From Candidatus Nanoarchaeia archaeon (GTDB taxonomy: Archaea; Nanobdellota; Nanobdellia; SCGC-AAA011-G17; GW2011-AR18): a stretch of 53,777 nucleotides of DNA. A program made the translations under genes and the position numbers. Below are positions 10,401-52,173 of this stretch, in pieces. The notes below the pieces were generated by a model. That model was given only the letters and a program-made list of their open reading frames with translations, did not search any database and was not told where the DNA came from. Each line of letters starts with the position of its first letter. Position 1 is the first letter of the stretch. The DNA lies in contig DATDVT010000026.1 in NCBI GenBank assembly GCA_035289905.1, positions 1 through 53,777 of the forward strand, read 5' to 3'.

Positions 10401-10470
10401 TCTTTTGATTGTAAATATACTTTATAAATTCTTTATTAGCTTATTCATTAGAGGTTTAATCGAAATCAAA

Positions 10471-16562: not shown

Positions 16563-17222
16563 TTAGGTTATAGTTCTTAGACGACCTGATTTAATTTCAA
16601 ATATTTCTCCTTCTTTTATTAGTTCTTTTATGATTTTTTCTGCTTCTTGTTCTATTAATTTTGAGTTTTCTATAACTTCATTGATATCTGCGCCTTGTTT
16701 GTCATCTAGTTTTTCAATTAGTTTTAGGATTATTTCTCTTTTGGATGTTGGTGTAATGTTTTCTATATTGATTATTATTGCATCATCTGATTTTTCAAGA
16801 ATTTTTTCTTTTAGAATAGGTTCTTTATATTTTAATTTTAATTCTAAGTGGCGAATTTTTAACCATTCTTTGGTTGTGTTTTTGATTATTTCTGGTGAGA
16901 GATATATTTGATTGTTAAAATATCTTATTTTTCCAATTACAATAACTATTTGTCCTGGAAGGATATTATCTAATAATTTTGTGTCTTCATTCCAGGTTCT
17001 AATATTTATTTGTGCAGTAGAATCATCTAGAATAATGGAGCTATAATTTTCTTGTTTTTGTATATTGGTTGTTATTCCTATAATATTTACTCTAGAGATT
17101 TGTAAATTTCTTGTTGTTATAAAGTTGGGTGTCATTTGTTCTTGTGTTTGGGTAAATGGAGCAATTATTATATCAGATATCCATAATTTGTATGCTGTTT
17201 GTCTTAGGAATTGTTCTGTCAT
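16563..17222 (-). CDS. RPA32/Stn1-like OB-fold protein with a C-terminal winged-helix-like domain
   Basis: 219 aa. RVNIIGITTNI...SIILDDSTAQINIRTWNED...LPGQIVIVIGKIRYFNNQIYLSPEII is the RPA2-type OB pattern. C-terminal KIIKELIKEGEIFEIKSGRLR looks winged-helix-like. Its start overlaps the MCM stop by 4 nt. Confidence 0.6.
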   Translation of the reverse strand: MTEQFLRQTAYKLWISDIIIAPFTQTQEQMTPNFITTRNLQISRVNIIGITTNIQKQENYSSIILDDSTAQINIRTWNEDTKLLDNILPGQIVIVIGKIRYFNNQIYLSPEIIKNTTKEWLKIRHLELKLKYKEPILKEKILEKSDDAIIINIENITPTSKREIILKLIEKLDDKQGADINEVIENSKLIEQEAEKIIKELIKEGEIFEIKSGRLRTIT

Positions 17223-29838: not shown

Positions 29839-32800
29839 ATGTATGAGATTGTTGTTGGTAGAAATGATATCGAGAGAAAAGAGCTTGGGTTAAAAGGTTC
29901 TGTTTTTTTAGGTAAACATTATGTACAAATGGGTTCTGTAGTTTCTTTGTCTAATAAGGTGTATATGGATGTTGCTAGATCACATGTTGTATTTATAGTG
30001 GGAAAACGTGGAAGTGGAAAGTGTATACATGGAGATACTTTAATAACTTTAGATGATGGTTCGTTAGTACCAATTAAGAATTTAGAGAATAATGAGCGTA
30101 ATATTTTATCTTTGAATCATAATCTAAAGATTAAATCTACTCAAAAAAGTGAATTTTTTTCTAGAAATGTTGATAGATTACTGTATATTAAATTAAGAAG
30201 TGGAAAATCAATTAAATTGACCCAAGAACATCCTTTGTTGACAGTTAAAGGCTGGGTTCCTGTTCAAGATTTAAAAGTGGGGTCTAGAATTGCTACACCT
30301 AGAGTAATGGATTGTTTTGGTAGTTATAATATGCTTGATCATGAAGTTAAATTGTTAGCTTATTTGATAGCTGAGGGTCATACAAAGAAAATAGTAATTT
30401 TTTCCAATACTGATAAAGATATAATAAATGATTTTAAAGATTCTCTTTATTCTTTTGATTCAAATTTAGAATTGGTTGAAGAAAGATTTGGTTCTTATAG
30501 AATATCTATGCCTTTTTGGCGAAATGAAGTTTTGGAAGTTAATGTTGCTAGAGATAAAATGGGCAAATTTATATCAAGTGAAGATAAAAATATCTATAAA
30601 AAAAGGAGTATTAGACAATTAATAGAAAGGGAGGAATTATTTGGGTTGTTATCAAAAGAGAAATATTTATCACAAAATATTTTAAGATTGAATAAAAGTA
30701 AATTAGCTTTGTTTTTAAATAGGTTATTTAGTTGTGATGGAAGTATATATTCCTCTAATAATACTTGGGAAATTAGTTATGCTTCTTCTTCAAGAAAATT
30801 AATAGATCAAATTCATCATTTGTTGTTAAGATTTGGTATATTATCTAGAATAAGGACTAAAAAGATTAAGTTTAATGGCAATTGTTTTGATAGTTATGAA
30901 ATTGTGATTGGTTCTTCGAACGTTGTAACTTTTATAAATCAAATTGGTTTTTTTGGAGAAAAAAGTCTTAAGCAAAAAATAGCTTTGGTTGAATTGAGTA
31001 AAAAATCTTGGAATCCCAATACTGATATTATCCCTAAGGAAATTTGGAATGTTACACAACCGAAAGATTGGACTAATATTGGAAGAGCTTTAGGCTATAA
31101 ATATCCAAAAGCTATGAGAGAAACATTAAGATATTCGCCATCTAGACAAAAATTATTGCAAATTGCAAATGTTGAGCAAAATGAAATACTTTTGTCTTTG
31201 TCAACGTCAGACGTTTTTTGGGATGAAATTGTTTCTATTGAATTACTAGAAGGAGATTTTATGGTTTATGATCTTAGTGTACCTGTTAACCATAATTTTA
31301 TTGCAAATGATATTATAATTCATAATAGTTATTCTTTAGGGGTAATAGCTGAAGAGATGTGTAATTTACCAGAAGAGGTTTCCAATAAATTAGCCATTTT
31401 AATTTTCGATACGATGGGTATCTATTGGACAATGAAATATGAAAATGAAAAAGATGATGACTTATTAAGAGAATGGGGGTTGAGAAAAAAGGCTTTAGAT
31501 GTTGATATTTACACTCCTGCGGGCTATTATGAACAATATAAAGAAGAGGGAATGCCTGCTAATTTTAAGTTTACGATTAATCCTTCTGAGATAGAAGTGA
31601 ATGATTGGTGTATGGCTTTTGATGTTGGATTAATGAGCCAAGAGGGAATTTTAATTGAGAATGTTGTTGGTAATTTAAAAAAAAGAGGGGACTTTAGTTT
31701 AGAAGATGTGGTTGTTGATTTAGAACAAGTTAAGGATGTTGATGAGAATGTTAGGAAAGCAGTAATTAATAGATTTAAGGCGGCAATAAGTTGGGGCTTG
31801 TTTGATATTAAAGGAACCAAATTAAAAGATATTTTGAGGGGGGGTAGAGCGTCAGTATTAGATATTAGTTGCTATAATAATTGGACTGTTAAAACTTTAG
31901 TAGTTGGTTTGATTTGTAGAAAGCTAATGTTAGAGAGAATGGCCGCTAGAAAAAAAGAGGAATTAGTTGATGTTGAAAGGGGTTATTCTAGATTTTCTAA
32001 TCCTTTGGAATTGGCTGAACAAATGCCAATTGTTTGGTTGTTAATTGATGAATGTTTGCCTTATAATGCTGAGATTATTACTAGTAAAAACCATACTGCA
32101 ATAGGAGATATAATAAATGATTTTGAGAAAGGTGAAAATATTGATGTTTGGGCTTATAATACTGAGATAAAACAATATGGTTACTATCCTGTTCAAGCAG
32201 TATATAGAAAAGGTAAAAGATCTTTAATTAAGATAATTACTGAGACAGGAAGAGATTTGATATGTACACCAAATCATAGAATTTTAACTAAAAACGGTTT
32301 TATTCATTCTAACTTAGCGAATAATGTTGGTGTTCCTGCGGTTTATCATCATGATCAAAATCTAAATAGTGTGAAAGCAAGATTATTAGGTTGTATTTTT
32401 GGAGATAGTTGGTTGTCTAATAACAGATCTGTTGAATTTAGTAGAAAAGGTTGTGAAGACGATTTGTTAAAAATAAAAGATGATTTATTTGTTTTAAACT
32501 TATCCTCAGGTTTAATTCATTCTAGAGATACTAAATCTAAGATTTGTGATTCTGATGGAAAAATAGTTGAAGTAAATGGATTAAGTCAAAGTATCTGTTA
32601 TTCTAGAAAAGCATTTAATTTTTTTAAGGATTTGGGTGCTCCTGTGGGTATTAAAGTAATTAACGTAGTTAAAATTCCAGAATGGATAATTAATGGAGAT
32701 AATAAAGTTAAATCAGAATTTTTAGCTGCATTATTTGCAAGTGATAGGACTTCTCCTTCACTGGCTAAGAAAATTTATTCTGATTATAATCCTATTGAAC

Positions 32801-33762
32801 TTTCTTTTAATAAATCTGAATTATTTATAAAAGAAGCATATTTTTATGCTAATCAAATTACTAGTTTATTAGATTCTTTAACTATTAAAAGTAAAATTTC
32901 ACAGAGAAAAGGAAATATAAGAAAAGATGGGGTAAGAACTATTAAAATAGTTATAACTATTGATAAGCAGTTAGATAATATGATTTTATTTTTGAGTAAG
33001 GTAGGATATAGATATTGTAAAAGAAAAGAAATTGAAGGAAAAAAGTGGTTGAGTTATTTAATGTTTAGAAATAAATGGAAGCAAGATAGAATTGAATTAA
33101 AAAGAAAAGCTTTAAATTTATATGATATACGGGGATTACGAAGGATAAAAATAACAAGAATTTTAGATATTAAGGATTATGAAGTATACTATAGTAAAAA
33201 TGTTTGTTTCTCTAAAATTATAATGAGCTTTGATGATTGGATAAAAACTAGATATAAAAATGAAACCATATTCGAACAAATTATTGATAAACAAAATGCA
33301 GGGGAGGAGGAAGTTTATGATCTAGCAGTTGAGAATGTTCATAATTTTGTTTCGAATGATATTGTGGTTCATAATTGCCACGAGTTCTTACCTAAAGAGG
33401 GAAAGACGTTAGCTAGTGATGCTTTGATTCAAGTTTTAAGAGAGGGTAGACAGCCAGGTGTGAGTTTGATAGCAGCTTCTCAACAGCCAGGAATGATTCA
33501 TAATGATATGATTACCCAGACAGATATTGTTATAGCACATAGATTAACTGCTAAAAGAGATATTGCTGCTTTGAATGCAATGATGCAATCTTATACTGGC
33601 GCAGATATAAGAAAATATTTGAATGCTTTACCAAATCTCAAGGGTAGTGCTTTAATTTTAGATGATAATTCTGAAAGGTTGTATCCTATAAGGGTAAGAC
33701 CTAGATTGAGTTGGCATGGTGGCGAGGCGCCAAGAGCAGTTAGACCTGAGAAAAATATTTAA
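29839..33762 (+). CDS. HerA/FtsK-superfamily P-loop ATPase (DUF87/COG0433-like), interrupted by two inteins
   Basis: The extein (431 aa) rejoins as Walker A VGKRGSGK|SYSLGV and Walker B WLLIDE|CHEFLP. The C-terminal IRVRPRLSWHGGEAP is typical of COG0433-type ATPases. Confidence 0.8.
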   Translation: MYEIVVGRNDIERKELGLKGSVFLGKHYVQMGSVVSLSNKVYMDVARSHVVFIVGKRGSGKCIHGDTLITLDDGSLVPIKNLENNERNILSLNHNLKIKSTQKSEFFSRNVDRLLYIKLRSGKSIKLTQEHPLLTVKGWVPVQDLKVGSRIATPRVMDCFGSYNMLDHEVKLLAYLIAEGHTKKIVIFSNTDKDIINDFKDSLYSFDSNLELVEERFGSYRISMPFWRNEVLEVNVARDKMGKFISSEDKNIYKKRSIRQLIEREELFGLLSKEKYLSQNILRLNKSKLALFLNRLFSCDGSIYSSNNTWEISYASSSRKLIDQIHHLLLRFGILSRIRTKKIKFNGNCFDSYEIVIGSSNVVTFINQIGFFGEKSLKQKIALVELSKKSWNPNTDIIPKEIWNVTQPKDWTNIGRALGYKYPKAMRETLRYSPSRQKLLQIANVEQNEILLSLSTSDVFWDEIVSIELLEGDFMVYDLSVPVNHNFIANDIIIHNSYSLGVIAEEMCNLPEEVSNKLAILIFDTMGIYWTMKYENEKDDDLLREWGLRKKALDVDIYTPAGYYEQYKEEGMPANFKFTINPSEIEVNDWCMAFDVGLMSQEGILIENVVGNLKKRGDFSLEDVVVDLEQVKDVDENVRKAVINRFKAAISWGLFDIKGTKLKDILRGGRASVLDISCYNNWTVKTLVVGLICRKLMLERMAARKKEELVDVERGYSRFSNPLELAEQMPIVWLLIDECLPYNAEIITSKNHTAIGDIINDFEKGENIDVWAYNTEIKQYGYYPVQAVYRKGKRSLIKIITETGRDLICTPNHRILTKNGFIHSNLANNVGVPAVYHHDQNLNSVKARLLGCIFGDSWLSNNRSVEFSRKGCEDDLLKIKDDLFVLNLSSGLIHSRDTKSKICDSDGKIVEVNGLSQSICYSRKAFNFFKDLGAPVGIKVINVVKIPEWIINGDNKVKSEFLAALFASDRTSPSLAKKIYSDYNPIELSFNKSELFIKEAYFYANQITSLLDSLTIKSKISQRKGNIRKDGVRTIKIVITIDKQLDNMILFLSKVGYRYCKRKEIEGKKWLSYLMFRNKWKQDRIELKRKALNLYDIRGLRRIKITRILDIKDYEVYYSKNVCFSKIIMSFDDWIKTRYKNETIFEQIIDKQNAGEEEVYDLAVENVHNFVSNDIVVHNCHEFLPKEGKTLASDALIQVLREGRQPGVSLIAASQQPGMIHNDMITQTDIVIAHRLTAKRDIAALNAMMQSYTGADIRKYLNALPNLKGSALILDDNSERLYPIRVRPRLSWHGGEAPRAVRPEKNI
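30022..31326 (+). mobile_element. HerA-like ATPase intein 1: 435 aa, LAGLIDADG type, inserted inside the P-loop
   Basis: Begins CIHGDTLITLDDG, block B KLTQEHPLL, LAGLIDADG motifs LLAYLIAEGH and LFLNRLFSCDGS, ends VYDLSVPVNHNFIANDIIIHN with +1 Ser. Confidence 0.9.
32053..33375 (+). mobile_element. HerA-like ATPase intein 2: 441 aa, LAGLIDADG type, inserted at Walker B
   Basis: Begins CLPYNAEIITS, block B LICTPNHRIL, motifs LLGCIFGDSW and FLAALFASDRT, ends VYDLAVENVHNFVSNDIVVHN with +1 Cys. Confidence 0.9.
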
Positions 33763-34529: not shown

Positions 34530-34997
34530 TTATTGATTGTTTATAATTTTTTTTACTATATTATTCCTTTTTATCTTTGCATAGTTTTTATTAATTGTTC
34601 CTATGTTTATTGTTCCAGTATTTTCTATTTTATTTACTTTTATTACTGTTATCTTACTATTTTCATTATTTTCTATTGATTTTTCATTATTTTCTTTAAG
34701 ATTTAAGAAATTTTTATTAATTGTTCCTATGTTTATTGTTCCAGTATTTTCTATTTTATTTACTCTTATTATAGTTGGTTTTTCTAATCCAATTAAATTT
34801 TTTAAAAAATTTATCCAATTTGGCTCGTCAATTGGTTCTTCTTGAGATAGACATTCAGCATTCAGAATGTCACACTCATCATGGGTAATTCCTAGATTAT
34901 CACATTCATTGTGAGTCAATTGGTTGCAGGATTCTTGGGCGAATACTCCAAGTGTACTTAATATGAGACAACAAAATATAGTTAGAACTTTTTTCAT
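34530..34997 (-). CDS. Secreted Cys-rich protein with two 42-aa internal repeats
   Basis: 155 aa. Signal-peptide-like MKKVLTIFCCLILSTLGVFAQE, a C-x-rich segment (CNQLTHNECDNLGITHDECDILNAEC), and VNKIENTGTINIGTINKN occurring twice. Confidence 0.6.
   Translation of the reverse strand: MKKVLTIFCCLILSTLGVFAQESCNQLTHNECDNLGITHDECDILNAECLSQEEPIDEPNWINFLKNLIGLEKPTIIRVNKIENTGTINIGTINKNFLNLKENNEKSIENNENSKITVIKVNKIENTGTINIGTINKNYAKIKRNNIVKKIINNQ
34585..34764. repeat. Two identical 54-nt copies spaced 126 nt apart, within the coding sequence
   Basis: 34585-34638 and 34711-34764 both read TTTTTATTAATTGTTCCTATGTTTATTGTTCCAGTATTTTCTATTTTATTTACT. Confidence 0.85.
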
Positions 34998-36066: not shown

Positions 36067-36076
36067 TTTATATAAA
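36067..36076 (+). promoter_or_regulatory. TATA box for the 36097..42191 operon, with a GGAGG just before the ATG
   Basis: TTTATATAAA centred about 26 nt upstream of ATG 36097. GGAGG at 36087-36091. Confidence 0.45.
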
Positions 36077-36096
36077 TAAATTTCTAGGAGGTATAT

Positions 36097-38580
36097 ATGT
36101 TTTATCTCCTAAGAAAGAGAATTGTTTTAGTGTTAGCTTTTTTATTAGTTATACCTTTTGTTTCTGGGTTAAGTTTTCCTTCTTTAATAAGTACATATAA
36201 TCAATTTTCTGGTTGGTTAGATTTTTTAATATTTTTTTTAATATTCTTTAGTTTGCCTAAAATTGTTTTTAAGAAGCATTTTGAGGGCGAAGAATCAGGG
36301 GCATTTAATGCTTTGTGTTTAGGCATTGGTCTGGTTTTAAGTTTTGCTATGTTGGGATTGGAATATTATTTCGGAGTTAATATTTTTAGTTTTGGTCCTT
36401 TGGCAATTCTTGTTTTGGTGCTTGCAGTTTTATTACCTTTAATTGGGTTGTTTAAGAAAGAAGGTGAAGGGGGAAGTAATAGATGGTTAGCTTTTTTGAT
36501 AATTTTGTTAATAATTCTGTTAGCAGTTTGGTTTTTTTATCCTGAATTATTGACATATATTCCTTACGGTGATGACCTTTGGTGGATTTTGATAGTTATT
36601 ATCGGTCTAATTTTGTTGCTTTTATTATTGAAGGGGGTATCTAAGCATGTTAAATGGCCTGAGTGGAGCAGGAAAGAGAAACGACCTGATTATAGTAAGG
36701 AGGGATTGTCTCCTTATGATGGTTCTTCTGCTGGTGTTGAGAGAGAACCTTTTAAGCACGGGGATTTGGTCGATAATAAAACTGGACAACCTAATAAAGA
36801 AGACAAGGTTTTAGGTTATTCTAAATTAAAAATAAAGATAGAGTTTAAGCCTTCTAAGAGAATTTTTGGGGATACAGAGGATTTTGTTGTTGTTTCTAAT
36901 GTTAATGGCGGTTCTGGAGATTATGTATACCAATGGTCTTTACCTGGATTAGCTGGTGTAATTTCTGATAAACCGTATGTTCAATTAAGTGGACGTAATT
37001 TTCCTTTACCTTCAGGTAAAGATAAGATTGAATATGCAATTGAATTAGTGGTCAGGGATAACACTACCGGGAATCTTGTTAAGGCTGTTAGTAGGTTTAA
37101 GATTAAGAGGATGGATATTTTTACTAAAGAGAAGATTGGTATTGTTGTTCAGGATATGATTGATGGCCGGTCTTTGCAAGAGGGTAGTAAATTTATACAG
37201 CTTAGAGATCCTATTTTTGTTGCTTCTAATGGTGGTGATTTGTTAATAAGTGCAGTAATCAGTGGGGGTTATGTTGTTGGAGAGCATGATATTGTTTGGG
37301 ATGTAGGTGTCCCTTTGGGTGTAAGAACGAAGGCAGAGTCTTTTATTTTTAATAGTGGTGATTGGGGCTTTGGTAAGGGATTTTTTACTGGTAAACAAAA
37401 AAATGAAGAAACTAAGACAATAGGGTTAAAGGTAAGGTATAAGGGAAAACTTGTTGAGAAGGCTTTTAATTTAGTGTTGTTGAAAAGAGAGCATGAAGAT
37501 CATGTAAAGATTAAGATTGATAAGCCTATTTCTCAGGACTTTGCTATTGGTGAACAGATTGAGTTGTTGGCTAGGGTTGAAAGAGATGATTATAGTGTTG
37601 TTGAAAAGATTGTTTGGTATTATATGTTTGGGGGTTTAAAGGGTTTTAATAAGAAGAGTTCTAGGCCAATAATGGTTTCTAATGTAGTACTTGAAACTGA
37701 TAGCGGTGTTTCACAAACTGTAGTTTTGCCAGTTATAAAGGAAGGATCTTATGTTATTTATGCTGTAGCTAAGGGTACGGGTGGAATAATTGATAGTGAT
37801 TATGATAGGGTTCTTGTTAATTTTTTTACTAATAAATTAGAGATAATTAAACCAAAGAATTTGAGTAGGCATTTTAATCATAATATATTGGATTTAGAAT
37901 GCGATTTTAGAGATTTTACAGGAAGGATTCAGTTTTTGCAATGGGTTTTGTTTGATTCTACAGGAAATAATGTTATGAAAGATAATAATGGGAATCCCAT
38001 GGTAGTGATGGATGATTTATTAAAGATAAGTGGAAAACAAGGTTTGAAGGTTGCGATACCAAAACAGTTAGATATTAGTGATCTGGATTCTGAAGTTTAT
38101 GTTGTTGCTTTATTTGCTTTGAATAGTTCAAATGATATATTTGATCAAAAAAGGGTGAGAATTAGGGTTGAAAAACCACAGAATCCTGTATTGAAGATTG
38201 TAGAACCAGAGGTTCGTAAGAGAATTACACAGGGTTATGTGCCTGGAGAATCTTTAAAGTATAGGATTAAGTTGACTGATCCAGATAAAATATGTAGTCC
38301 TTCTTTATTTGAATGGGAAATATATGATATAAATGGAATGCGTATTCCAATTAAATTATCTTCTGTTAAGGGAGGAACTTTTGTTATACCTAAAACTATG
38401 CCTTTCGGAAATTATACGTTAATGGTTAGTGCTGTGAACGTTAGAGTTAAGTCTAGTTTTAAGGGTTATTATACTGGAGAGATTGATAGAAAAGATTTAT
38501 TACCCTTTAAAGATAAAGTTGATTTTGTTGTTAAGAATCGTTTAGTTAAGATAAGGAGAATAATATGGCCGAACCCTTAA
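36097..38580 (+). CDS. 827-aa protein: N-terminal multi-TM anchor related to the 4741..6431 family, followed by a roughly 640-aa array of beta-sandwich repeats
   Basis: TM region aa 1-185 contains GWLDFLIFFLIFFSLPKIVFKK...GAFNALCLGIGLVLS (family signature). The remainder is repeated modules beginning (L/V)KI..P and ending G.Y.(L/I).V (e.g. LKIVEPEVRK...GNYTLMVSAV). Confidence 0.8.
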   Translation: MFYLLRKRIVLVLAFLLVIPFVSGLSFPSLISTYNQFSGWLDFLIFFLIFFSLPKIVFKKHFEGEESGAFNALCLGIGLVLSFAMLGLEYYFGVNIFSFGPLAILVLVLAVLLPLIGLFKKEGEGGSNRWLAFLIILLIILLAVWFFYPELLTYIPYGDDLWWILIVIIGLILLLLLLKGVSKHVKWPEWSRKEKRPDYSKEGLSPYDGSSAGVEREPFKHGDLVDNKTGQPNKEDKVLGYSKLKIKIEFKPSKRIFGDTEDFVVVSNVNGGSGDYVYQWSLPGLAGVISDKPYVQLSGRNFPLPSGKDKIEYAIELVVRDNTTGNLVKAVSRFKIKRMDIFTKEKIGIVVQDMIDGRSLQEGSKFIQLRDPIFVASNGGDLLISAVISGGYVVGEHDIVWDVGVPLGVRTKAESFIFNSGDWGFGKGFFTGKQKNEETKTIGLKVRYKGKLVEKAFNLVLLKREHEDHVKIKIDKPISQDFAIGEQIELLARVERDDYSVVEKIVWYYMFGGLKGFNKKSSRPIMVSNVVLETDSGVSQTVVLPVIKEGSYVIYAVAKGTGGIIDSDYDRVLVNFFTNKLEIIKPKNLSRHFNHNILDLECDFRDFTGRIQFLQWVLFDSTGNNVMKDNNGNPMVVMDDLLKISGKQGLKVAIPKQLDISDLDSEVYVVALFALNSSNDIFDQKRVRIRVEKPQNPVLKIVEPEVRKRITQGYVPGESLKYRIKLTDPDKICSPSLFEWEIYDINGMRIPIKLSSVKGGTFVIPKTMPFGNYTLMVSAVNVRVKSSFKGYYTGEIDRKDLLPFKDKVDFVVKNRLVKIRRIIWPNP

Positions 38581-41500
38581 TTATTAATGTAAAGATTGGA
38601 GAGGGAAAAAACGTAGAGGTTTTTTATTCTGATAGTTCTAATTTGGTTGCTAAGGTTGGTTTTATTTATAAAAAGGTTGATGAAGAGTTTTGGCATAAAG
38701 AAATTTCTGAAGTTAAGTCTTCAAAACAATTGTTTGATTCTTGGAAGGAAAAAGAAACTGTAAAAATGGTTAAGTTAAATATTTTATTTGATGAACATTT
38801 TAGTGGAGCTTATGAGTATAAGGTTGCTTTATTTAATTCAAATGAAGAGGTTTTAGTAGAATCAGATGACAGTTGTTTTTTTGTAATGCCAGAGAGTGAT
38901 TTAGGTTTAAAAATAATTTCACCAAGGGACGTTATTGAAGATAATAATGGAAAGATTGGTTTACAACAAGGATTGAATTTTGTTTATGATTTAAAGGGAT
39001 TGTCTCCTTTGAGTTCTAATGTTTTTGTTAGGTGGTTTTTAGTTGAAGGGGATTATGTTGATAATGGATTGTTTAGTGAAGGGGGATTGATTAAGAACAA
39101 TAAAGTAAAATTTCTTTTTGATTCAGATACAAAAGACTTAGATAAATTTAAGCGTTATTCTTTAGAAGATTTTGATATTACTAATAAAGGGATTTATACT
39201 TTAATTGTTGGGGTTTTTAAAGAAGAAATTATTGAATCTAATTTAATAGATCAAGATAGTATACTCTTAGATGTTGTAGATAGTGATTTAAATGTAAAAA
39301 TGAAAGTGATTGAGGTTGTTGATTCGATAACAAGAGAAAAAATATATTCTGTTTTAAATAATAAGGACATAATAAAATTGAGAGATGATATTGACTATCA
39401 GTTTTATCTGGAGATAGAAGATAGTGTTGGTGTTCTTGAGAATATTGGTATTGGATATAATGGGAGATATAAAACCATTTCTGCTTTAAATAAAGAGTTT
39501 ACTCTTAAGTTTGATTCGCCTTGGGTTGGGGAAAGAATAGTAGAGATTTCTCCAATTGGTTTAAATGGGAATTTAGTTGGAGAAATTTTTAGGTTTATAG
39601 TTCTTTGTGAGGAGGGTGATAGGAATGGAGTGAGGTTTAAGTTTTTAGCTTATAAAGATCTTTTAGGGAATAATGTTACTAGGCTCTTAAAGGAGAATAG
39701 TAATAATTTTATTTCAAAACAACTTTATGAGGTTGGGGTTAATGTTTTTAATTTTAGTGGAAATGTTGAGGCTGTTGAATTTGGTTATATTGTAAATAAT
39801 TTAGAGGAGCCTTTATTTCTTGTAAAACCTATAAGTGTTCTTAAAGGTAGTGCAGGGGATATTTCTTTTCCTTATGATTTTAGTGCTTTGAATTGGAGGG
39901 GAGATTTAATATTGTATGTTAGGGGGGTTTTGGGATTAAGGAAAAATAGTATTAAGTATACAACACCAAGTTATATAAAAATTAGTACTTCTGGCGTTGA
40001 GGTTTATTTATCTGATTATAGAACGGGTTTAAAACCTTATGGTGTAAAATTTGGTCAGATTCTTTCTTTAAATGTTAAGGTTGAAGATCCTTCAGATAAA
40101 GTAGGTTCAGTTGTTTTATGGTATCAATGTAAAGATAAGGGAGAGTTTGTAGTAGCTGTTGATTATCCTGAAGGGGATGTACTTAATGAGGGTGAAAATT
40201 TAGTACGAAGGATTGGGAGTAAGGATTTTTCTATTGATTGGAGTGTTAGTTGTGATGATGATTTTTTGTTAATTGTTAGAGCGTATGGTAAGGGGGATAA
40301 AACTAATGTTTTAAATGAACAAAGGATTAATTTTGAATTATTAGAGGTTGTAAGTGTTATAGTTAAGTTTTTGCATAATTTAAATTCTGAGGGTATTTAT
40401 GAGGTTCCATTTGGAGACTTTAATTTAGTTGTTGATTATGATAATAGTGTTGGTTTAGCTGCTGAAGTTTATATTAAATATGATAATTATTTTTTAGGAA
40501 GGATTTCTATACCTAAGGGAAAGAATAGACTAGTTTTACCTTATAATTTTAAATTGTTGAGGGGCTGGGATGGGGAGAGAAAATTTGTTACACAATGTGT
40601 GGATAGTAAGGGGTATCTTGTTGGTAAGGGAGATGTTCTTAGGGTTAAATTGATTGATAAAAAACTTTCTGAATCTACTAAAATTGAATTAAATAGTGTG
40701 AATGCTAAAAGATTTGATGATTATTATTTATTAAATAAAAGGGTTGGTGAGAATTTATTTAAATTAAAGATAGTTAATAAAGATAAAGATATAGATAGAA
40801 TTGTTTTGGGAGAGGTTATGGGTGGTGGTATTTTTGAACTTCTTGGTGTTGTTTTTGATAAAAATAAACATGTGCAGATTTTAGATGTAGAGGATATTTT
40901 TGATTTATGGTGGGATGGTAATAAAGAGGTATGTTTTGTTGGTTATGATAAAAAAGGGATTGTTAGTACAAATGTTGTTAAAGTGATTTTAAGGTTGCCT
41001 GAGACTAATGTGAAATTAGTTGGTTTAAATGATATTAAGGTTATTAATAAGGGTGAGAGGTATGATATTTATAGTCTAGAGAATGAATACAGGGTTGTTG
41101 TAGACGATAAAAGGGGAATAATAGATCAAGTTAGATTTGGTTGGTTTGATGAATTTGGTTATAATGTTTATATTGATCTGAAAAAAGATAGAATGTTTAA
41201 ATATGAATTTAGGGCTAAGGAATTATGGTCTGGTGATAAGGATTGTTATATAGTTGGCGTAGATAATAATCGTAAATTTGTTGGACCGGTTTTTAATTTT
41301 ATTTTAAGGAGATATTCAGAGGATGATTTAGCTTTAATGTTGAGGGAAAAATATTTGGCTAGATATCTTTGGTGGGGGAGTAAAAATCAATACTCGAGCG
41401 AAGATTTGTTAGCTATTGATCTAGGTGTTGTGTTATTACAGAGTTTTTTTAGTTCTTTAAAAATTAATCAAAAAAATATTTACGGAGAATTGGTTTTGGG

Positions 41501-42191
41501 AGGCAATTTAGAATTAAAAAAATTTCAATATTTTAGTATCTTAAAAAAAGCAGTTGAATTGTTTAAATTAAGTGACTTTAGAGTTTATCTTAGAGATAAT
41601 TCAATTAGGTTATTAAAAAATGGAGAATATTTATCTGAATCTGAAATTGTTATAGATGAGGGTGTAGAGGAATCTATAGTGAATTTATTAATTGGGGCTA
41701 ATGTTTATTATATTCAGTTAGTTTATAAGACAGTTGAAAAGGGTGAATGGTCTTTTGGATTGTATCAGCCAAAATACAACGGTGAAAGGGGGATTGTTGG
41801 ATTGCATTTAGATATTGATGTTTCTATTTTAAAAGAAGAGGGGCAGCTGTTAGTTAATTTTATTCCTTTAGGGGAAGATAGGCTTGTTATTGGTGGTGGT
41901 CTTGATTGTTTGAGAATAAAATTTATAAAGGGAAAAGAAGTTAGTATAAACTATGATTTGTTGAGCGATAGGTTCATTCAGAATTATTCTGATGCTATGT
42001 TTGAATATTTAGGTGATGAAGAGTTGAATGGAGCTAGTGTTGGGGAGTTTATTAGTGATGAATTTAATAAGGATGATAGTATTTCTTTAAATGAACAGTT
42101 GATGGATGCCTTAGGGCAAAAAAATATAGAGTTAGGTCTTGTTGAGCTTAATATTTTGATTGATAAAATTGTTGAGAAGCTTAGAAAATAG
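38565..42191 (+). CDS. 1208-aa protein with no signal peptide or TM: at least 7 beta-sandwich repeats of the same type plus a roughly 300-aa helical C-terminal region
   Basis: ATG 38565 overlaps the upstream gene by 16 nt and is preceded by AAGGAG (38553-38558). Modules such as LKIISPRDV...GIYTLIVGVF resemble those of 36097..38580. The C-terminus (LREKYLARYLWWGSK...) is helix-like. Confidence 0.8.
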   Translation: MAEPLIINVKIGEGKNVEVFYSDSSNLVAKVGFIYKKVDEEFWHKEISEVKSSKQLFDSWKEKETVKMVKLNILFDEHFSGAYEYKVALFNSNEEVLVESDDSCFFVMPESDLGLKIISPRDVIEDNNGKIGLQQGLNFVYDLKGLSPLSSNVFVRWFLVEGDYVDNGLFSEGGLIKNNKVKFLFDSDTKDLDKFKRYSLEDFDITNKGIYTLIVGVFKEEIIESNLIDQDSILLDVVDSDLNVKMKVIEVVDSITREKIYSVLNNKDIIKLRDDIDYQFYLEIEDSVGVLENIGIGYNGRYKTISALNKEFTLKFDSPWVGERIVEISPIGLNGNLVGEIFRFIVLCEEGDRNGVRFKFLAYKDLLGNNVTRLLKENSNNFISKQLYEVGVNVFNFSGNVEAVEFGYIVNNLEEPLFLVKPISVLKGSAGDISFPYDFSALNWRGDLILYVRGVLGLRKNSIKYTTPSYIKISTSGVEVYLSDYRTGLKPYGVKFGQILSLNVKVEDPSDKVGSVVLWYQCKDKGEFVVAVDYPEGDVLNEGENLVRRIGSKDFSIDWSVSCDDDFLLIVRAYGKGDKTNVLNEQRINFELLEVVSVIVKFLHNLNSEGIYEVPFGDFNLVVDYDNSVGLAAEVYIKYDNYFLGRISIPKGKNRLVLPYNFKLLRGWDGERKFVTQCVDSKGYLVGKGDVLRVKLIDKKLSESTKIELNSVNAKRFDDYYLLNKRVGENLFKLKIVNKDKDIDRIVLGEVMGGGIFELLGVVFDKNKHVQILDVEDIFDLWWDGNKEVCFVGYDKKGIVSTNVVKVILRLPETNVKLVGLNDIKVINKGERYDIYSLENEYRVVVDDKRGIIDQVRFGWFDEFGYNVYIDLKKDRMFKYEFRAKELWSGDKDCYIVGVDNNRKFVGPVFNFILRRYSEDDLALMLREKYLARYLWWGSKNQYSSEDLLAIDLGVVLLQSFFSSLKINQKNIYGELVLGGNLELKKFQYFSILKKAVELFKLSDFRVYLRDNSIRLLKNGEYLSESEIVIDEGVEESIVNLLIGANVYYIQLVYKTVEKGEWSFGLYQPKYNGERGIVGLHLDIDVSILKEEGQLLVNFIPLGEDRLVIGGGLDCLRIKFIKGKEVSINYDLLSDRFIQNYSDAMFEYLGDEELNGASVGEFISDEFNKDDSISLNEQLMDALGQKNIELGLVELNILIDKIVEKLRK

Positions 42192-43308: not shown

Positions 43309-43914
43309 GTGATATTAAAAAAGAGCTTTAAGCATGGATGGTTTTATATGTATAGATTACATAAAGATAAAATAGATCATTTGTGTTGTGATGAACTAAA
43401 TAATTATTTGTTTGATGTTTTACATAATTGTGATGATGAAAAATTTTGTAATGGTCCAAGGAGTAGCGCTTTAAGATTTGATTTAGGGATTAATGTTAAA
43501 GAGGTATTGAATCATGAAGTTTGTGGTTTGACTTCTAGGGGATTAGAGGAAAATTTTGAGAGGTTTAAGACAGCACATTCACAAGTTCAAGTTTATATGT
43601 TAGAAAACGATGATAAGACTATTGGTGTTGAGGTTCCTGTTTGGTTTGAGAAGGAAGAAATGAACACTTTTAAGAATATTTTTGGTGGATGTGGCGGTGT
43701 TTTGAGTGGACATATCGATATTTTAAGGGTAGATAATGAAAAGGTTTGGGTTTTGGACTATAAACCTAATGCTTATAAAGAGAAGTATGCTGCTACACAG
43801 GTTTATTTCTATGCTTTGATGTTAAGTGCTAGAACTGGGATTTCTTTGAATAAATTTAGATGTGGTTATTTTGATTCTTCTAGGTGTTACATATTTAAGG
43901 CAATTTTAGAATAA
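43309..43914 (+). CDS. PD-(D/E)XK nuclease-superfamily protein (RecB/Cas4-like core), Cys-rich N-terminus
   Basis: GHIDILRVDNEKVWVLDYKPN...ATQVYFYALML fits the D...(D/E)xK...QxxxY core. Cys residues are at CCDE...HNCDDEKFC and C-terminal FRCGYFDSSRC. The start is GTG 43309; the first in-frame ATG is 43348. Confidence 0.55.
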   Translation: MILKKSFKHGWFYMYRLHKDKIDHLCCDELNNYLFDVLHNCDDEKFCNGPRSSALRFDLGINVKEVLNHEVCGLTSRGLEENFERFKTAHSQVQVYMLENDDKTIGVEVPVWFEKEEMNTFKNIFGGCGGVLSGHIDILRVDNEKVWVLDYKPNAYKEKYAATQVYFYALMLSARTGISLNKFRCGYFDSSRCYIFKAILE

Positions 43915-43944
43915 CTTTATTACTTTATTTAGTTTTATTTGTAT

Positions 43945-44532: not shown

Positions 44533-46731
44533 ATGAAAACCCAATTAATAATAACAGAGAAACCATCCGTAGCAGAAAAAATAGCTCAAGCATTAAAAGA
44601 AACAAAGATAGAAAAACATAAAGAAGGAAAGGTTGCTTATTATATATTAACAAGAAATAATATAAAAATAAGTATAGTTTGTGCGGTTGGTCATTTATAC
44701 ACAGTTACCGAGAAAGATAAAAAAGGTTGGAAATACCCCACATTCAATACAGAATGGAAAGCATCTTATGAAGTAAATAAAGATTCAGCATATATAAAAC
44801 CTTATTTAACAATAATAAAAAAACTCTGCAAGGACTCTGAAGAAATAATAATAGCTACAGATTGGGATATAGAAGGAGAAGTTATTGGAGAAAGAATTCT
44901 AAAATTCATATGCAAAAAATCTGAAGCAAAAAGAATGAATTATTCTACAACAACAAAAGAAGATTTATTAAGTTCATACGAACACCTAGCAAAAACATAC
45001 GATAAAAAATTAGCAGAAGCTGGAATTACAAGGCATGAACTAGATTTTATATTTGGAATAAATCTTTCTAGAGCACTAACCCTTTCAATAAAACACGCGT
45101 TAAACAGATTCAAAATACTGTCTTCCGGAAGAGTTCAAGGTCCAGCTCTAAAAATTTTATATAATCGAGAACTAGAAATAGAAAATTTTAAACCTGTTCC
45201 ATTCTTTGAAATATACCTAAACTCAGAAACAAAAAAGAAAGAAATAATAAAGGCTCAACACGAAAAAGGAAAAATAGAAGATAAAAAAGAAGCAGAAAAA
45301 ATTTATAAAAAAATTAAAGATGAAAAAAATGCAACAATAAAAAATATTGAAAAAAGACAATATAAACAACTTCCACCTTTCCCTTTCGATCTAACAACTT
45401 TACAAACAGAAGCATACTCCGTACTAAAAATTACTCCAAAAAAAACATTAGAAATAGCACAAAACCTCTATACAAATTCCTATATCTCCTACCCTAGAAC
45501 ATCCTCACAAAAACTACCAGAATCTATAGGATACAAAAAAATATTAAAAAAATTAGAAACAAAATTCAAAGAAGAATGTACTTTTTTGCTTTCAAAAGAA
45601 AACCTTAAACCAAGAGAAGGAGATAAAACAGATCCTGCTCACCCCTCATGTTATCCCACAGGTGAAATACCAAAAAAATTATCGCCTCAAGAAGCAAAAT
45701 TATACGAATTAATAGTTAGAAGATTTTTCTCAGTATTTGGAGAACAAGCATTAAGAGAAACCCAAACATTAACAATTGACGTAAAAAAAGAAAACTTCGT
45801 TGCCAAAGGTACAGTTACTTTAAAACCTGGTTGGCATGATTTATATAAACCATTCTTAAAAATAAAAGAAGAAACATTGCCTATAGTTATTTTAAATGAT
45901 AGTTTACACATTAAAAAAATAAATCTTGAAAAAAAAGAAACGCAACCTCCTGCAAGATATAATGAAGCTTCAATAATTAAAGAACTCGAGGCCAAATCAC
46001 TTGGAACAAAATCTACAAGAAGCACCATTATAGATAATTTATTCCAAAGAAATTATACTGAAGGAAGACCCATCAAAGTAACAGAATTAGGTAAAAAAAC
46101 TATCAATACTCTATTGAAATATTGTCCAGAAATACTAGATGAGAAGCTTACCAGAGATTTTGAAGAAGATATGGAAGCAATCCAACAAAAAGAAAAAAAA
46201 GGTTCAGAAGTAATAGAGGCTGCTGAAAAATTCCTGACCATAAGTTTAAAAAAATTCAAAACACATGAAAAAGAAATAGGAAAAGAACTTGGAGAAGCAA
46301 ATATAGAAACACAACAAAAACAATCAAAAATTGGTCCTTGTCCTATATGCAAAAAAGGAGAACTAACAATTAAAAGAGGAAAATTTGGTTTGTTTATAGC
46401 TTGTACAGAATATCCTAAATGTAATGCAACCTTTAAAATACCACAAGGAAAAATACTGTCTAACGAAAAATCATGTGAACAATGTAACTATCCAACAATA
46501 AAATTAATCAAAGCAAGACGTGCCCCTCAAATTTTATGTATAAATCCCGATTGTCCAACAAAAAAAATTAACGAAAAGGAGATATTATCAGAAAAAAGAA
46601 AATGTCCAAATTGTGGCACAGAATTAATAATTAGAAAATCTGCATACGGTGCATTCTTAGCCTGCCCTAACTATCCAAAATGCAAACATATTGAAGCAAT
46701 AAAACAAAATAAAGATTATCAAAAAAAATAA
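44533..46731 (+). CDS. topA: Type IA DNA topoisomerase with C-terminal zinc ribbons
   Basis: 732 aa. Toprim LIITEKPS...ATDWDIEGE, active-site region ISYPRTSS, C-terminal CPICKKG...C..C, C.QC...C, CPNCG...CPNYPKC. Confidence 0.9.
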   Translation: MKTQLIITEKPSVAEKIAQALKETKIEKHKEGKVAYYILTRNNIKISIVCAVGHLYTVTEKDKKGWKYPTFNTEWKASYEVNKDSAYIKPYLTIIKKLCKDSEEIIIATDWDIEGEVIGERILKFICKKSEAKRMNYSTTTKEDLLSSYEHLAKTYDKKLAEAGITRHELDFIFGINLSRALTLSIKHALNRFKILSSGRVQGPALKILYNRELEIENFKPVPFFEIYLNSETKKKEIIKAQHEKGKIEDKKEAEKIYKKIKDEKNATIKNIEKRQYKQLPPFPFDLTTLQTEAYSVLKITPKKTLEIAQNLYTNSYISYPRTSSQKLPESIGYKKILKKLETKFKEECTFLLSKENLKPREGDKTDPAHPSCYPTGEIPKKLSPQEAKLYELIVRRFFSVFGEQALRETQTLTIDVKKENFVAKGTVTLKPGWHDLYKPFLKIKEETLPIVILNDSLHIKKINLEKKETQPPARYNEASIIKELEAKSLGTKSTRSTIIDNLFQRNYTEGRPIKVTELGKKTINTLLKYCPEILDEKLTRDFEEDMEAIQQKEKKGSEVIEAAEKFLTISLKKFKTHEKEIGKELGEANIETQQKQSKIGPCPICKKGELTIKRGKFGLFIACTEYPKCNATFKIPQGKILSNEKSCEQCNYPTIKLIKARRAPQILCINPDCPTKKINEKEILSEKRKCPNCGTELIIRKSAYGAFLACPNYPKCKHIEAIKQNKDYQKK

Positions 46732-47318
46732 ATACCTTTATCATTAATTTCAAACTCCAAAGATTTATTATCAAAAATTAGTTTTCTAGGATTTTTAGAT
46801 AAAAAATATTTGCTATTACAGTTTTCCATAACAAAATTCCCACCAACACACTTAACCACATTATTATTAATGTCACAATATACTTGATTTAAAACCAGAA
46901 CACAACTGTTTACACTAAATTTTTTTAGAATATTAAAATATTTTTTTACAAGAGTATTAGCTAAGAGATAATTCATCTTCAATTCTTCTCGATAATAATA
47001 ACCTAAGCTATCTAATACCAACAAATCACACTTTAAAGGTAATTTTTCTAATAATTTAAATTGTTCTTCTAAACTATGCACCTTAAAAACAATAAGAGAA
47101 TCATAAACCTTTCCATTTGATATTTGTTTAAATCTATCCATATTAAACCCATTCTCAGAATCAATATAAAATACCTTTTTTCCCTTAGAAGCAAAAAAAT
47201 TGCTTGCCATCATTCCTAAAGTCGTCTTTCCAGTAGCACACGCTCCATAAATTAAATTAATCCCCCTAGAAAAACCACCAATTCTCAAATCTAAATCCCC
47301 ACAACCAGTACTAAACAT
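46719..47318 (-). CDS. radB: RadB (RecA-superfamily, short archaeal paralog)
   Basis: MFSTGCGDLDLRIGGFSRGINLIYGACATGKTTLGMM...VFYIDSENGFNMDRFKQI is the RadB pattern with Walker A GACATGKT. ATG 47318 preferred over TTG 47324. Confidence 0.8.
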   Translation of the reverse strand: MFSTGCGDLDLRIGGFSRGINLIYGACATGKTTLGMMASNFFASKGKKVFYIDSENGFNMDRFKQISNGKVYDSLIVFKVHSLEEQFKLLEKLPLKCDLLVLDSLGYYYREELKMNYLLANTLVKKYFNILKKFSVNSCVLVLNQVYCDINNNVVKCVGGNFVMENCNSKYFLSKNPRKLIFDNKSLEFEINDKGIYFF

Positions 47319-47426
47319 AATCAATCTAAGAAATTCAACTTTAAATATATTTAGTATAAATTATTTACTACCAAGAAAGAATAACAAACCAAAAGCCTTA
47401 AATACATGAAAAAAAATTAAAAAAAT

Positions 47427-48080
47427 ATGAAAAGATTGCCAAAACCCATATTGCCAAAAGAAGTATATGAATTTACAGAAGAAGATTGGATATCCTTCGA
47501 AGATTCATGTAAAGAAATCCCACAAAAATGTTTAAACGAAAAACCTTCTAAAAAAAATGTAGAAGATTTATCTGATCAATTACCTACTGAGGAAGATTTA
47601 TCTGATCAATTACCTACTGGGGAATATTTATTAACAAATTACCCTGGAATTCACCCATTATCTCAATTTATAAATGGCAGAGCAGTTATTAATTTTTATA
47701 GAGCATGGGATCACAATGAAAACAAAGGACCTCAAGACTATCCATCAACTAGTAATAAAATTCGTGTAATAAACATTCCTGATCCTAATGAAAAAAAACT
47801 TACAGAAGAACAACTAAAAAGTCTATATGAAACACTTTTTAAAAAAACCAATATTTTTACAAAGGGAGATATAAAAATTATAAATCAAAGATTAATTAAT
47901 AATTCTGGACTAGAAGTCTTTGTTAATGAACAAAGAACCAATAATATTGAATTAAAACATAGAGATAGAATTGGTATAGGAACAGAATACCCCCCTGAAA
48001 TAGAATTTATTTATTTAATCTCTCAACCATATTCTCAAAACCAGTTAAAAAATCATCAAACAAATCATCCCCCTTCTTAA
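47427..48080 (+). CDS. Hypothetical protein with a tandem 10-aa repeat and a possible FHA-like C-terminal region
   Basis: 217 aa. EDLSDQLPTE/EDLSDQLPTG repeat. SGLEVFVNEQRTNNIELKHRDRIGIG loosely fits the FHA tail (G..vN......L..gD.I.iG). The last 74 nt overlap the convergent ORF 48007..48432. Confidence 0.45.
   Translation: MKRLPKPILPKEVYEFTEEDWISFEDSCKEIPQKCLNEKPSKKNVEDLSDQLPTEEDLSDQLPTGEYLLTNYPGIHPLSQFINGRAVINFYRAWDHNENKGPQDYPSTSNKIRVINIPDPNEKKLTEEQLKSLYETLFKKTNIFTKGDIKIINQRLINNSGLEVFVNEQRTNNIELKHRDRIGIGTEYPPEIEFIYLISQPYSQNQLKNHQTNHPPS
47562..47621 (+). repeat. Tandem 30-nt repeat, two copies with 1 mismatch
   Basis: GAAGATTTATCTGATCAATTACCTACTG(A/G)G occurs twice, in frame. Confidence 0.9.
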
Positions 48081-48432
48081 ATCTCCTAAGTTTATAATAT
48101 TCACTAACATTAACCAACTGTCTAGCTAATTTATTAAACACTCTAATATAAATCACCATATCTTCAGATTTACCAAAACGTATTATCTTTTCTAAAGCAA
48201 GTTTATATCTTTTATAATCACTTTTATTCTTCATAATTCTCTGTAAATTAATATATTCTTTAATAAATTCATTAAAATAAACTAAAGATTTATCATCCTC
48301 TTTTTCATAAGCCTCAACAGCCCTAATAAAAGGATCAACCATCCCCATAACAACCTTTCTTATCCTTTTAGCCTCTACAGAAGTATCAACCGCTTTCCTA
48401 CCAAAAATCAACTCCTTTAATGTATCAAACAT
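48007..48432 (-). CDS. Helical hypothetical protein
   Basis: 141-aa ORF with no recognised motif; plausible composition. Confidence 0.45.
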   Translation of the reverse strand: MFDTLKELIFGRKAVDTSVEAKRIRKVVMGMVDPFIRAVEAYEKEDDKSLVYFNEFIKEYINLQRIMKNKSDYKRYKLALEKIIRFGKSEDMVIYIRVFNKLARQLVNVSEYYKLRRFKKGDDLFDDFLTGFENMVERLNK

Positions 48433-48507
48433 CCTATAATTATTCTACTCTACTTTAAAAATATTTCTAGAGAAAGGCTTAAATATATTTATAAATAAAA
48501 ACAAATC

Positions 48508-51500: not shown

Positions 51501-52173
51501 ACATGGCTCATTTATAGGAGGCAAATTACCTATAATATTACATAACTCTAAATGGGTGGGAGACTCAGAAAAAGCAGTAAAGAAAATCTTTGAAAAGGCA
51601 CGTCAAACCTCGCCAACAATAATCTTTTTTGATGAAATAGATGCAATAGTTCCAAAACGAGGTCGTTCACACGACTCTGGTGTAACAGAACGAGTAGTAA
51701 ATCAAATGTTAACTGAAATTGACGGTTTAATAGAATTAAACGATGTTTTAGTAATTGGAGCAACAAATAGGCCAGATATAATAGATCCTGCATTACTGAG
51801 ACCAGGAAGATTTGACAGAATTATATTAACACAAACACCAGACGAAAAAGCAAGACTATCAATTCTAAAAATTCACACAAAAAATACACCACTTGCTTCA
51901 GATATAGACTTAAATAAAATAGCAAAAGAAACAGAAAATTATGTTGGAGCAGATTTAGAATCCTTATGCAAAGAAGCAGGAATGTTAGCACTAAGAGAAG
52001 ATATAAACGCAAAAGAAGTCAAAATGAAACATTTCAAAGAAGCATTAAAAAAAGTAAGAGCCTCAGTAACAGAAGAAGACATTAAAAAATACGAAGAAAT
52101 TGAAGCTAATTATATAAAAACTGCAAGAGGCGGAGCAATAAGAGAAAAAGATGTCCTTAGTTATATGGGTTAA
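48508..52173 (+). CDS. cdc48: CDC48/VCP-type AAA+ ATPase, interrupted by one intein in the D2 domain
   Basis: N-domain MAEVKLKV...GDIVEIEG. D1 Walker A GPPGTGKT with IIFIDEID; D2 GPPGTGKT with IIFFDEID. The extein is 760 aa of the 1221-aa ORF. Confidence 0.95.
50164..51546 (+). mobile_element. CDC48 intein: 461 aa, LAGLIDADG type, with a non-canonical block B
   Basis: Inserted in LIKGAELL|[10 protein letters not shown]. Begins [18 protein letters not shown] motifs LGWFVAEGN and [11 protein letters not shown], ends [22 protein letters not shown] with +1 Ser. Block B reads ISKNQPLY (Ser/Gln where TxxH is expected). Confidence 0.88.

Follow-up and report, generated by a model that had tools for sequence, protein, structure and literature searches.

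The genes considered here are two overlapping open reading frames (ORFs), A and B, found in a 53,777-nucleotide (nt) stretch of DNA of a Candidatus Nanoarchaeia archaeon (GCA_035289905.1, contig DATDVT010000026.1), which was analyzed at its full length and is called the window. The window is a low-GC (∼28%) archaeal contig with genes for MCM, Cdc48, topoisomerase VI, RFC, HerA, FEN1, and Trm5, and inteins interrupt several of its housekeeping genes. The membrane protein A is polytopic, with five transmembrane (TM) helices after a signal-peptide-like N-terminus; B is a soluble protein of 1,208 amino acids (aa) with no export signal and with six immunoglobulin (Ig)-like domains as its core. Both ORFs lie where an earlier note on this DNA had placed them, and the operon is indeed set between housekeeping genes, with trm5 diverging from A and the FEN1 gene converging on the 3′ end of B. 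The elements of the locus are:

36067..36096, + strand: upstream region of A, a short intergenic stretch common to A and the divergent trm5
36097-38580, + strand: ORF A, 827 aa
38553..38567, + strand: coupling junction, with AAGGAG, a 6-nt spacer, and the ATG of B, within the last codons of A
38565-42191, + strand: ORF B, 1208 aa

As for the junction, the two reading frames share 16 nt, and AAGGAG (38553-38558) precedes the ATG of B (38565), while the stop codon of A is at 38578-38580; the overlap and the motif had been reported as such by the earlier note, and the spacer it gave as 7 nt measures 6 nt. A relative, assembled from the Logan run ERR7850082 and found also in ERR7850080 and ERR7850085 (three samples, one study), keeps this junction in its locus L002, with a 10-nt overlap and GGGGGAG before the ATG of B. 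The overlap and the Shine-Dalgarno (SD) arrangement, kept in the relative, agree with the co-translation of A and B that had been suggested, and support the view of the pair as a translationally coupled two-gene unit; the conserved two-ORF junction also argues against a recently frameshifted single gene. Upstream of A, a TATA-like TTTATATAA occupies 36067-36075 and GGAGG lies at 36087-36091, 5 nt before the ATG, and a near-identical string, AAAACCTTTATATAAATAAATTTCTAGGGAGTATATATG, precedes the A ortholog in L002; the region is a putative promoter, and the promoter and terminator scan employed a bacterial consensus, uninformative for an archaeon.

Regarding composition, the coding strand is G/T-rich, as had been noticed, and C-poor: a recount of 39001-39060 gives A9 T30 G17 C4, in place of the hand count A10 T31 G19 C4. 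The B gene has 5.9% C and a GC skew of 0.60, and the skew of the A gene is 0.44; TopA (skew −0.07) and Cdc48 (skew 0.11), both A-rich and within 44533-52173 of that strand, do not have this bias. The C-poor bias of A and B would derive mainly from their V/F/G/L/D-rich β-protein composition. Over the window, the cumulative GC skew climbs steadily from ∼12 kb to 45 kb, and then it is flat.

Hydropathy indicates that B has neither a signal peptide nor a TM segment, as the earlier note had stated, its sole hydrophobic window being marginal. The protein divides into three parts:

38565..39284, + strand: B residues 1-240, two N-terminal β-rich modules, the second having LKIISP...VRWFLV...GIYTLIV
39285..41312, + strand: B residues 241-916, six tandem Ig-like β-sandwich modules of 104-125 aa (bounds 241-350, 351-475, 476-594, 595-704, 705-812, and 813-916)
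41313..42191, + strand: B residues 917-1208, a non-repeat C-terminal domain with a helical stretch, a β-rich stretch, and an acidic helical tail (by eye)

The repeat of the central part was found by manual alignment of the modules, after BLASTP searches of each of the two proteins against itself and the other had returned no significant internal repeat, and hhalign self-comparison only weak hints in B. Its recurring motif is F.Y.F..W.G(D/E)...V.G.D..G..VG....F.L, and it was evaluated by a leave-one-out procedure, with profiles built from five module positions of both orthologs and compared with 200 shuffles: five of the six omitted modules were recovered at 12-24 bits, against 10 bits or less for the shuffles, and module 5 of B (476-594) was the one not recovered. 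The same profile missed the first two modules of B, which also missed one another, and had no match in A, in the rest of the window, or in six related loci. B has probably expanded by internal duplication of one β-sandwich module.

These results do not sustain the claim that A and B are built from one shared module of 90-110 aa. The peptides quoted in its favor are present (LKIVEPEV, FEWEIYD, and GNYTLMVS in A; LKIISPRD, VRWFLVEG, and GIYTLIVG in B), and the three-part motif they define, hKIhxP ... xW ... GxYTLxV, has a single occurrence in each protein; moreover, the five modules of A and the first two of B score within the shuffled range. The motif is essentially a generic signature of the Ig-like sandwich.

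The Ig-like fold that had been suggested for the repeats was instead obtained for that of B: the AlphaFold2 (AF2) model of module 8, computed from 12 aligned module copies, is an eight-strand sandwich with a predicted local distance difference test score (pLDDT) of 87.6 and a predicted TM-score (pTM) of 0.78. Foldseek with this module returned generic Ig-like/E-set folds only, with a best E of 7e-4, TM-scores of 0.45-0.62, and identity of ∼10%; the folds matched were CopC, the Y_Y_Y domain of Bacteroides hybrid two-component sensors, the CARDB domain of PF1109, PKD, FN3, and MG.

Searches by sequence family gave no assignment. Whole A and B had no match in Pfam at E up to 1; single modules remained below the gathering thresholds (SprB 12.9 bits, cut-off 28; Y_Y_Y 13.3 bits, cut-off 26.6); whole proteins, two-sequence profiles, and single modules found no usable match in Pfam, NCBIfam, PADLOC, PHROGs, or PDB sequences. 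In particular, residues 1-240 and 917-1208 of B had none in Pfam, NCBIfam, or the PDB, and the C-terminal domain is 47-61% identical to its ortholog. As the earlier note had anticipated, the repeats do not map to a well-known adhesin or S-layer family, and these empty searches support the view that A and B would belong to no described family of either kind.

As for A, hydropathy locates six hydrophobic helices at its N-terminus, namely, a signal-peptide-like segment and five TM helices, followed by a charged linker and a long β region:

36097..36168, + strand: signal-peptide-like segment, A residues 1-24 (hydropathy), with MFYLLRKR, a hydrophobic core, and VSG|LS
36169..36630, + strand: five-TM core, A residues 25-178 (hydropathy, AF2 helices, charge count)
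36631..36816, + strand: linker, A residues 179-240, K/R/E/D/G/P-rich, 8 K/R being counted over the 37 residues that follow the last TM helix
36817..38580, + strand: all-β region, A residues 241-827, ∼590 aa, with about five modules of 100-130 aa (division by eye)

The cleavage site of the first segment is putative and derives from the −3/−1 rule. The same segment becomes visible in the ortholog of A (P0004) when the in-frame ATG at L002 9950 is taken as the start (MFYVLKKR...SAFA|LS), the annotated ORF being probably too short, and a signal-like start is present also in a more distant homolog, described below, of the contig L007 (MQIEKRVK...VFA|DI). The sequence KHVKWPEWSRKEKRPDYSK is found in A.

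The TM helices are at about residues 40-56, 67-88, 98-118, 129-147, and 159-178, and the number of K+R residues along the successive non-TM regions is 2/0/2/0/2/0/8; hence, within the TM domain, K and R are confined to alternate loops and to the region after the last TM helix, where 5 K/R fall within 15 residues. The same alternation occurs in P0004 (by eye) and in the L007 homolog. By the positive-inside rule, this pattern predicts that the N-terminus of mature A is outside and that everything after residue 178 is inside; the placement of the array in the cytoplasm, advanced by the earlier note on these grounds, is in line with the counts.

That note also had A carrying the anchor of a family of short membrane proteins, of which the window encodes a tandem triplet:

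4741-5316, 5316-5894, and 5895-6431, + strand: five-TM triplet, proteins of ∼180-190 aa (also in L005 8001-9684 and L006 8001-9650)

This family is DPANN-wide, with at least 960 relatives, and has no Pfam domain. A hidden Markov model (HMM) built from 120 of its members scores A no better than shuffles, and the native order of the TM blocks of A ranks 70-95 among 120 block permutations; hhalign gave a marginal local match of 48 columns (P 7.5e-5, with 2e-3 for the reversed control). The MAFFT alignment looks co-linear, but homology of the two anchors was rejected after the HMM and block-permutation controls, and the resemblance is treated as probably architectural. The topology argument is not affected, as it draws on the charges of A and not on the short family.

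The TM core is the most striking part of A for its conservation: residues 32-91 are identical to the ortholog at 58 of 60 positions, above the housekeeping neighbors (74-85%), and dN of the core is 0.14, while the remainder of A is only 41-70% identical, with the linker at 45% and containing indels. The motifs GW(L/F)DF..FFLI and (Y/F)PE persist in the L007 homolog, where overall identity drops to 21%. Judged from the sequences, this constraint seems to exceed the needs of a passive anchor, and it suggests a different explanation of the system, in which function resides chiefly in the membrane domain, as a channel, a transporter, or a receptor-like module, and the β array and B act as cytoplasmic regulatory or adaptor parts. 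The Asp of GW(L/F)DF, retained together with (Y/F)PE, would fit such a role; the core has no similarity to a transporter or channel family in Pfam, NCBIfam, or the PDB, and five TM helices with very short loops make a small core for a transporter, so that this explanation is regarded as improbable.

Regarding the β array, the AF2 model of full-length A, from an alignment of two sequences, had a pLDDT of 36 and only strands in the array region; it is usable for secondary structure only, with no fold claim. Its Foldseek matches are weak and include tandem FN3 arrays, among them those of integrin β4 and titin. The first module is PKD/SprB-like (GGSGDYVYQW ... IELVVRD), with faint, subthreshold Pfam scores (SprB E 0.09, Y_Y_Y E 0.08), and it aligns with the L007 homolog; leave-one-out profiles found no significant similarity of the A modules to each other.

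The relative encodes one ortholog of each protein, P0004 (56% identical to A) and P0002 (53% identical to B), in the gene order RFC, FKBP, HerA, ..., Trm5, A, B, FEN1, PD-(D/E)XK nuclease. The ratio of nonsynonymous to synonymous substitution rates (dN/dS) is 0.30 for A and 0.34 for B, and stays below 0.6 in every segment; that of the neighbors is 0.11-0.23, with a similar dS of ∼0.8-1.1. Both genes are under purifying selection, and evolve 2-3.5 times faster than the housekeeping neighbors (53-56% versus 72-95% amino-acid identity). It is then hardly credible that A and B are decaying or functionless lineage-specific ORFs, or one gene split by a frameshift: the very few homologs and the elevated dN would agree with decay, but selection acts on each segment, neither long ORF is interrupted in the two genomes, despite differences at ∼45% of residues, the junction is conserved with its own SD and ATG, and the repeat module of B folds confidently in AF2.

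The pair has a restricted distribution. A k-mer-filtered search of 5.8 billion clusters returned one ortholog each for A and B, and exhaustive HMMER with the B profile, on 1.84 billion representatives, had three hits: the ortholog, P0005, which is a fragment of B, and P0006, a repetitive bacterial protein matched spuriously. P0005 is a 262-aa variant of B, identical over residues 1-106, then without ∼18 residues (VMPESDLGLKIISPRDVI) and with an unrelated tail; the probable cause is a frameshift or an assembly difference in another dataset of the same organism. No relatives came from two scans of GTDB genomes, one of JGI metagenomes with A as query, and two of IMG/VR contigs. A positional search with FEN1 as bait identified the contig Ga0209542_10003241 (L007), with FEN1 58% and Trm5 39% identical to those of the window, and the following features:

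L007 15508-17937, − strand: distant positional ortholog of A, 809 aa, divergent from trm5 (listed with it: L007 17989-19014, + strand, and 9667-10698, + strand)
L007 4361-6985, + strand: candidate surface glycoprotein, 874 aa, with signal peptide, C-terminal TM helix, and basic tail

The A homolog of L007 is 21% identical to residues 26-336 of A (BLASTP E 7e-9) and has the same architecture, with signal peptide, five TM helices, and PKD-like modules. The next gene after it is a GT4 glycosyltransferase and not B, and two GT4 glycosyltransferases and a TPR protein separate it from FEN1; tblastn with B was empty in L007-L011. The existence of a positional ortholog without B makes A the older component: A appears to be an older, very fast-evolving family, and B a lineage-specific accessory, presumably recent and close to an orphan gene. 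The co-conservation of the pair is narrow, as it recurs in one close relative and not in L007, where A occurs without B; this partly meets the condition, lack of co-conservation in other genomes, that the earlier note had named as a refutation.

The narrow taxonomic range and the absence of B at the equivalent position of L007 could also be read as signs of mobile-element, viral, or defense cargo, with A and B as tail-fiber-like proteins or as a membrane-effector defense pair; consistently, the viral-model library of Foldseek gave FN3-like and tail-fiber Ig domains for the B module (E ∼2e-3). These matches reflect the generic Ig fold, however, and no PHROG or PADLOC match, nor any relative on IMG/VR contigs, was obtained; no integrase, repeats, or tRNA were noted at the borders, synteny with the relative is perfect across the locus, and A adjoins trm5 across a deep divergence. 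Such an origin is very improbable and, like the junk-ORF explanation, poorly supported.

The explanation that is favored, if tentatively, considers A and B a lineage-specific, membrane-tethered cytoplasmic complex of Ig-like domains, made by translational coupling. From the charge distribution, a short invariant N-terminal peptide of A would face outward, and ∼650 residues, linker plus β chain, would hang into the cytoplasm; from the conserved overlap and SD, A and B would be made together and associate. A would then tether a chain of β-sandwiches to the inner face of the membrane. B, a rod of at least eight sandwiches that ends in a separate head and a helical, acidic tail, would attach to this chain, and the whole would connect, through the TM core and the external peptide, with a partner inside the membrane or past it; the role would be structural rather than catalytic. 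A more specific form of this idea, that of an intracellular rod or lattice, the prokaryotic counterpart of filamin or titin, coupled through the TM core and the peptide to the surface or to host contact, is a doubtful extension.

The location of the β arrays is central to this explanation, and the cytoplasm is considered the more probable, with the extracellular side keeping a sizable share. The positive-inside pattern is clean in all three A homologs. Sequons are few, 5 in the soluble part of A (0.77 per 100 aa) and 3 in B (0.25 per 100 aa, with an observed/expected ratio of 0.46), and of these none in A and one in B are conserved in the orthologs. Cysteines are conserved between orthologs (3/3 in A, 6/8 in B) and mostly single per module (by eye), a pattern easier to reconcile with a reducing compartment. 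Finally, the linker of A is K/E-rich, B is signal-less and translationally coupled to A, and neither protein has a C-terminal TM helix. If this topology is correct, both β arrays are intracellular, and the unknown export route for B that the earlier note had considered is not needed.

Several observations weigh against a cytoplasmic location, and in part they favor the rival with the strongest claim, a surface or host-attachment apparatus, adhesin- or S-layer-like, in which the array of A is extracellular, the number or the orientation of its TM helices is mispredicted, and B is either exported by an unrecognized route or an unrelated cytoplasmic protein on the same transcript. The folds matched are generic Ig-like, PKD, FN3, and CARDB ones, and arrays of Ig-like, PKD-like, and FN3-like domains in prokaryotes are overwhelmingly extracellular. 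A begins with a signal-peptide-like segment, and this start, with its AXA-type site, is kept in three lineages; A and B diverge rapidly, as surface proteins typically do. In the L007 homolog, the soluble part is only 16.5% charged (K+R 8.9%, D+E 7.6%), rich in N/S/T and also in N/T/Q, and has 14 sequons, a composition nearer to that of the surface glycoprotein of its contig than to that of the cytoplasmic proteins (∼30% charged). The glycoprotein, used as composition calibrator only, has 33 N-X-S/T sequons (3.8 per 100 aa) and an S/T-rich stalk. Composition and sequon density thus give conflicting signals, A and B of the window looking cytoplasmic and the L007 homolog surface-like; exported and cytoplasmic proteins of the window genome are not clearly separated by composition, which weakens any argument from it. 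Furthermore, no B adjoins the L007 homolog, and the A-B interaction is deduced from gene arrangement alone. Putative surface proteins of DPANN archaea are likewise lineage-specific and multi-Ig (bioRxiv 10.1101/2023.10.27.564410).

What speaks against a surface apparatus is, first of all, the clean charge pattern of three homologs, with the 5 K/R in the 15 residues past the last TM helix of A. Sequons are few and unconserved, and those of the L007 homolog are explained by composition (observed/expected 1.29, compared with 1.80 for the surface-type protein). In addition, no signal of the Sec, Tat, or pilin type is present in B, which is also depleted in sequons, and A and B do not have the C-terminal anchor of most putative DPANN surface proteins. 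The undescribed cell-envelope or host-attachment apparatus that the earlier note had preferred is not favored; on the whole, it is judged unlikely, though well ahead of the other rivals.

Other genes of the window deserve mention. The relatives of its small membrane proteins, where named, are annotated as Woesearchaeota, Pacearchaeota, or Nanoarchaeia, and a DPANN (Nanobdellota-type) origin of the contig is therefore probable. The five-TM triplet follows a TraB/PrgY/GumN-like gene and precedes two reverse-strand genes, in a cluster conserved in the window and in two other genomes; in L005 and L006 the TraB-like gene and the triplet are separated by a small called gene, and the cluster is followed by a T2SSE-type ATPase and a Pfam-less gene of ∼710-725 aa, so that the triplet may be linked to a type-IV-filament-like machine. 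At 34530-34997 (− strand), a small secreted-looking protein has the signal peptide MKKVLTIFCCLILSTLGVFAQ, a Cys-rich N-terminus, and two copies of VNKIENTGTINIGTINKN; Pfam gave no match for it, and, with 53-57% identity to its ortholog, it evolves as fast as A and B.

As for the inteins of the window, they are found in HerA, MCM, and Cdc48, and the HerA and Cdc48 of the relative are intein-free. HerA (29839-33762, + strand) has 1307 aa versus 431 aa in the relative, with insertions at about residues 62-496 and 739-1163; Cdc48 (48508-52173, + strand) has 1221 aa versus 760 aa, with an insertion at ∼554-1013; MCM (17219-21109, − strand) has Intein_splicing, LAGLIDADG, and Hint matches. The relative also has an extra gene for a 268-aa protein of the PRTase-CE family (L001 15603-16471), between the genes of the PD-(D/E)XK nuclease and of a 148-aa membrane protein, which is absent from the window (43914-43939), and TopA differs in position and orientation; synteny is thus lost immediately downstream of A and B.

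DPANN genomes often encode large hypothetical proteins restricted to one lineage, and A and B can be compared with several known systems. The nearest are the putative multi-Ig surface proteins of DPANN archaea, e.g., MJ1_0160, MJ1_0299, and MJ1_0707 of Nanobdella aerobiophila, which begin with a signal peptide, mostly carry a TM helix at the C-terminus, and have 13-52 N-glycosylation sites besides long regions predicted to be extracellular (bioRxiv 10.1101/2023.10.27.564410). A and B resemble them in size (800-1300 aa), in having several Ig-like folds, in their narrow lineages, and in being invisible to sequence-family searches; unlike them, A has an N-terminal five-TM anchor with a predicted C-in orientation, sequons are scarce, and B is signal-less. 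Accordingly, three of the four features that define those proteins, i.e., orientation, glycosylation sites, and, for B, the signal peptide, are missing, and the one shared is the presence of multiple Ig-like sandwich domains, modeled for the B repeat. If the arrays are truly cytoplasmic, caution is needed in using Ig arrays as surface markers when DPANN "surfaceomes" are predicted, and the pair would point to an undescribed membrane-associated intracellular structure, in organisms with uncharacterized host-contact machinery; if the topology is wrong, A and B would represent a new anchoring architecture, with the signal peptide and the five TM helices all N-terminal, for fast-evolving DPANN surface proteins.

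At the level of the fold, the B module is an eight-strand sandwich like PKD, CARDB, FN3, Y_Y_Y, CopC, and MG, at the TM-scores given above, and it differs from the Pfam Ig families, as identity is ∼10%, no model is hit even at E 0.01, and W.G(D/E)...G.D..G..VG is specific to B. Filamin, titin, and the FN3 pairs of the integrin β4 tail offer the precedent of β-sandwich chains on the cytoplasmic side, some of them membrane-tethered; there is no sequence relationship with A and B, and, given the low pLDDT of the A model, the analogy concerns the predicted location only. With the ∼185-aa five-TM family, A has in common the size of the membrane domain, the five TM helices, the K-rich inner loops, and the predicted N-out/C-in orientation; A adds the signal-peptide-like helix and the 650-aa extension, and homology is unsupported. 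Bacterial α2-macroglobulin-like proteins also present a run of ∼100-aa sandwiches followed by a partly helical domain, and the MG domains of CD109 and C4 were matched with E ∼0.03; in B, however, none of the eight cysteines is in a CxEQ motif, there is no lipoprotein or Sec signal, and sequence similarity is absent.

In conclusion, what appears distinctive of A and B with respect to all these systems is the combination of a polytopic anchor at the N-terminus, an orientation predicted to be intracellular, and a partner for which hardly any relatives exist; whichever location is correct, B is a giant gene, close to an orphan, that was probably built by the recent six-fold internal duplication of one module.

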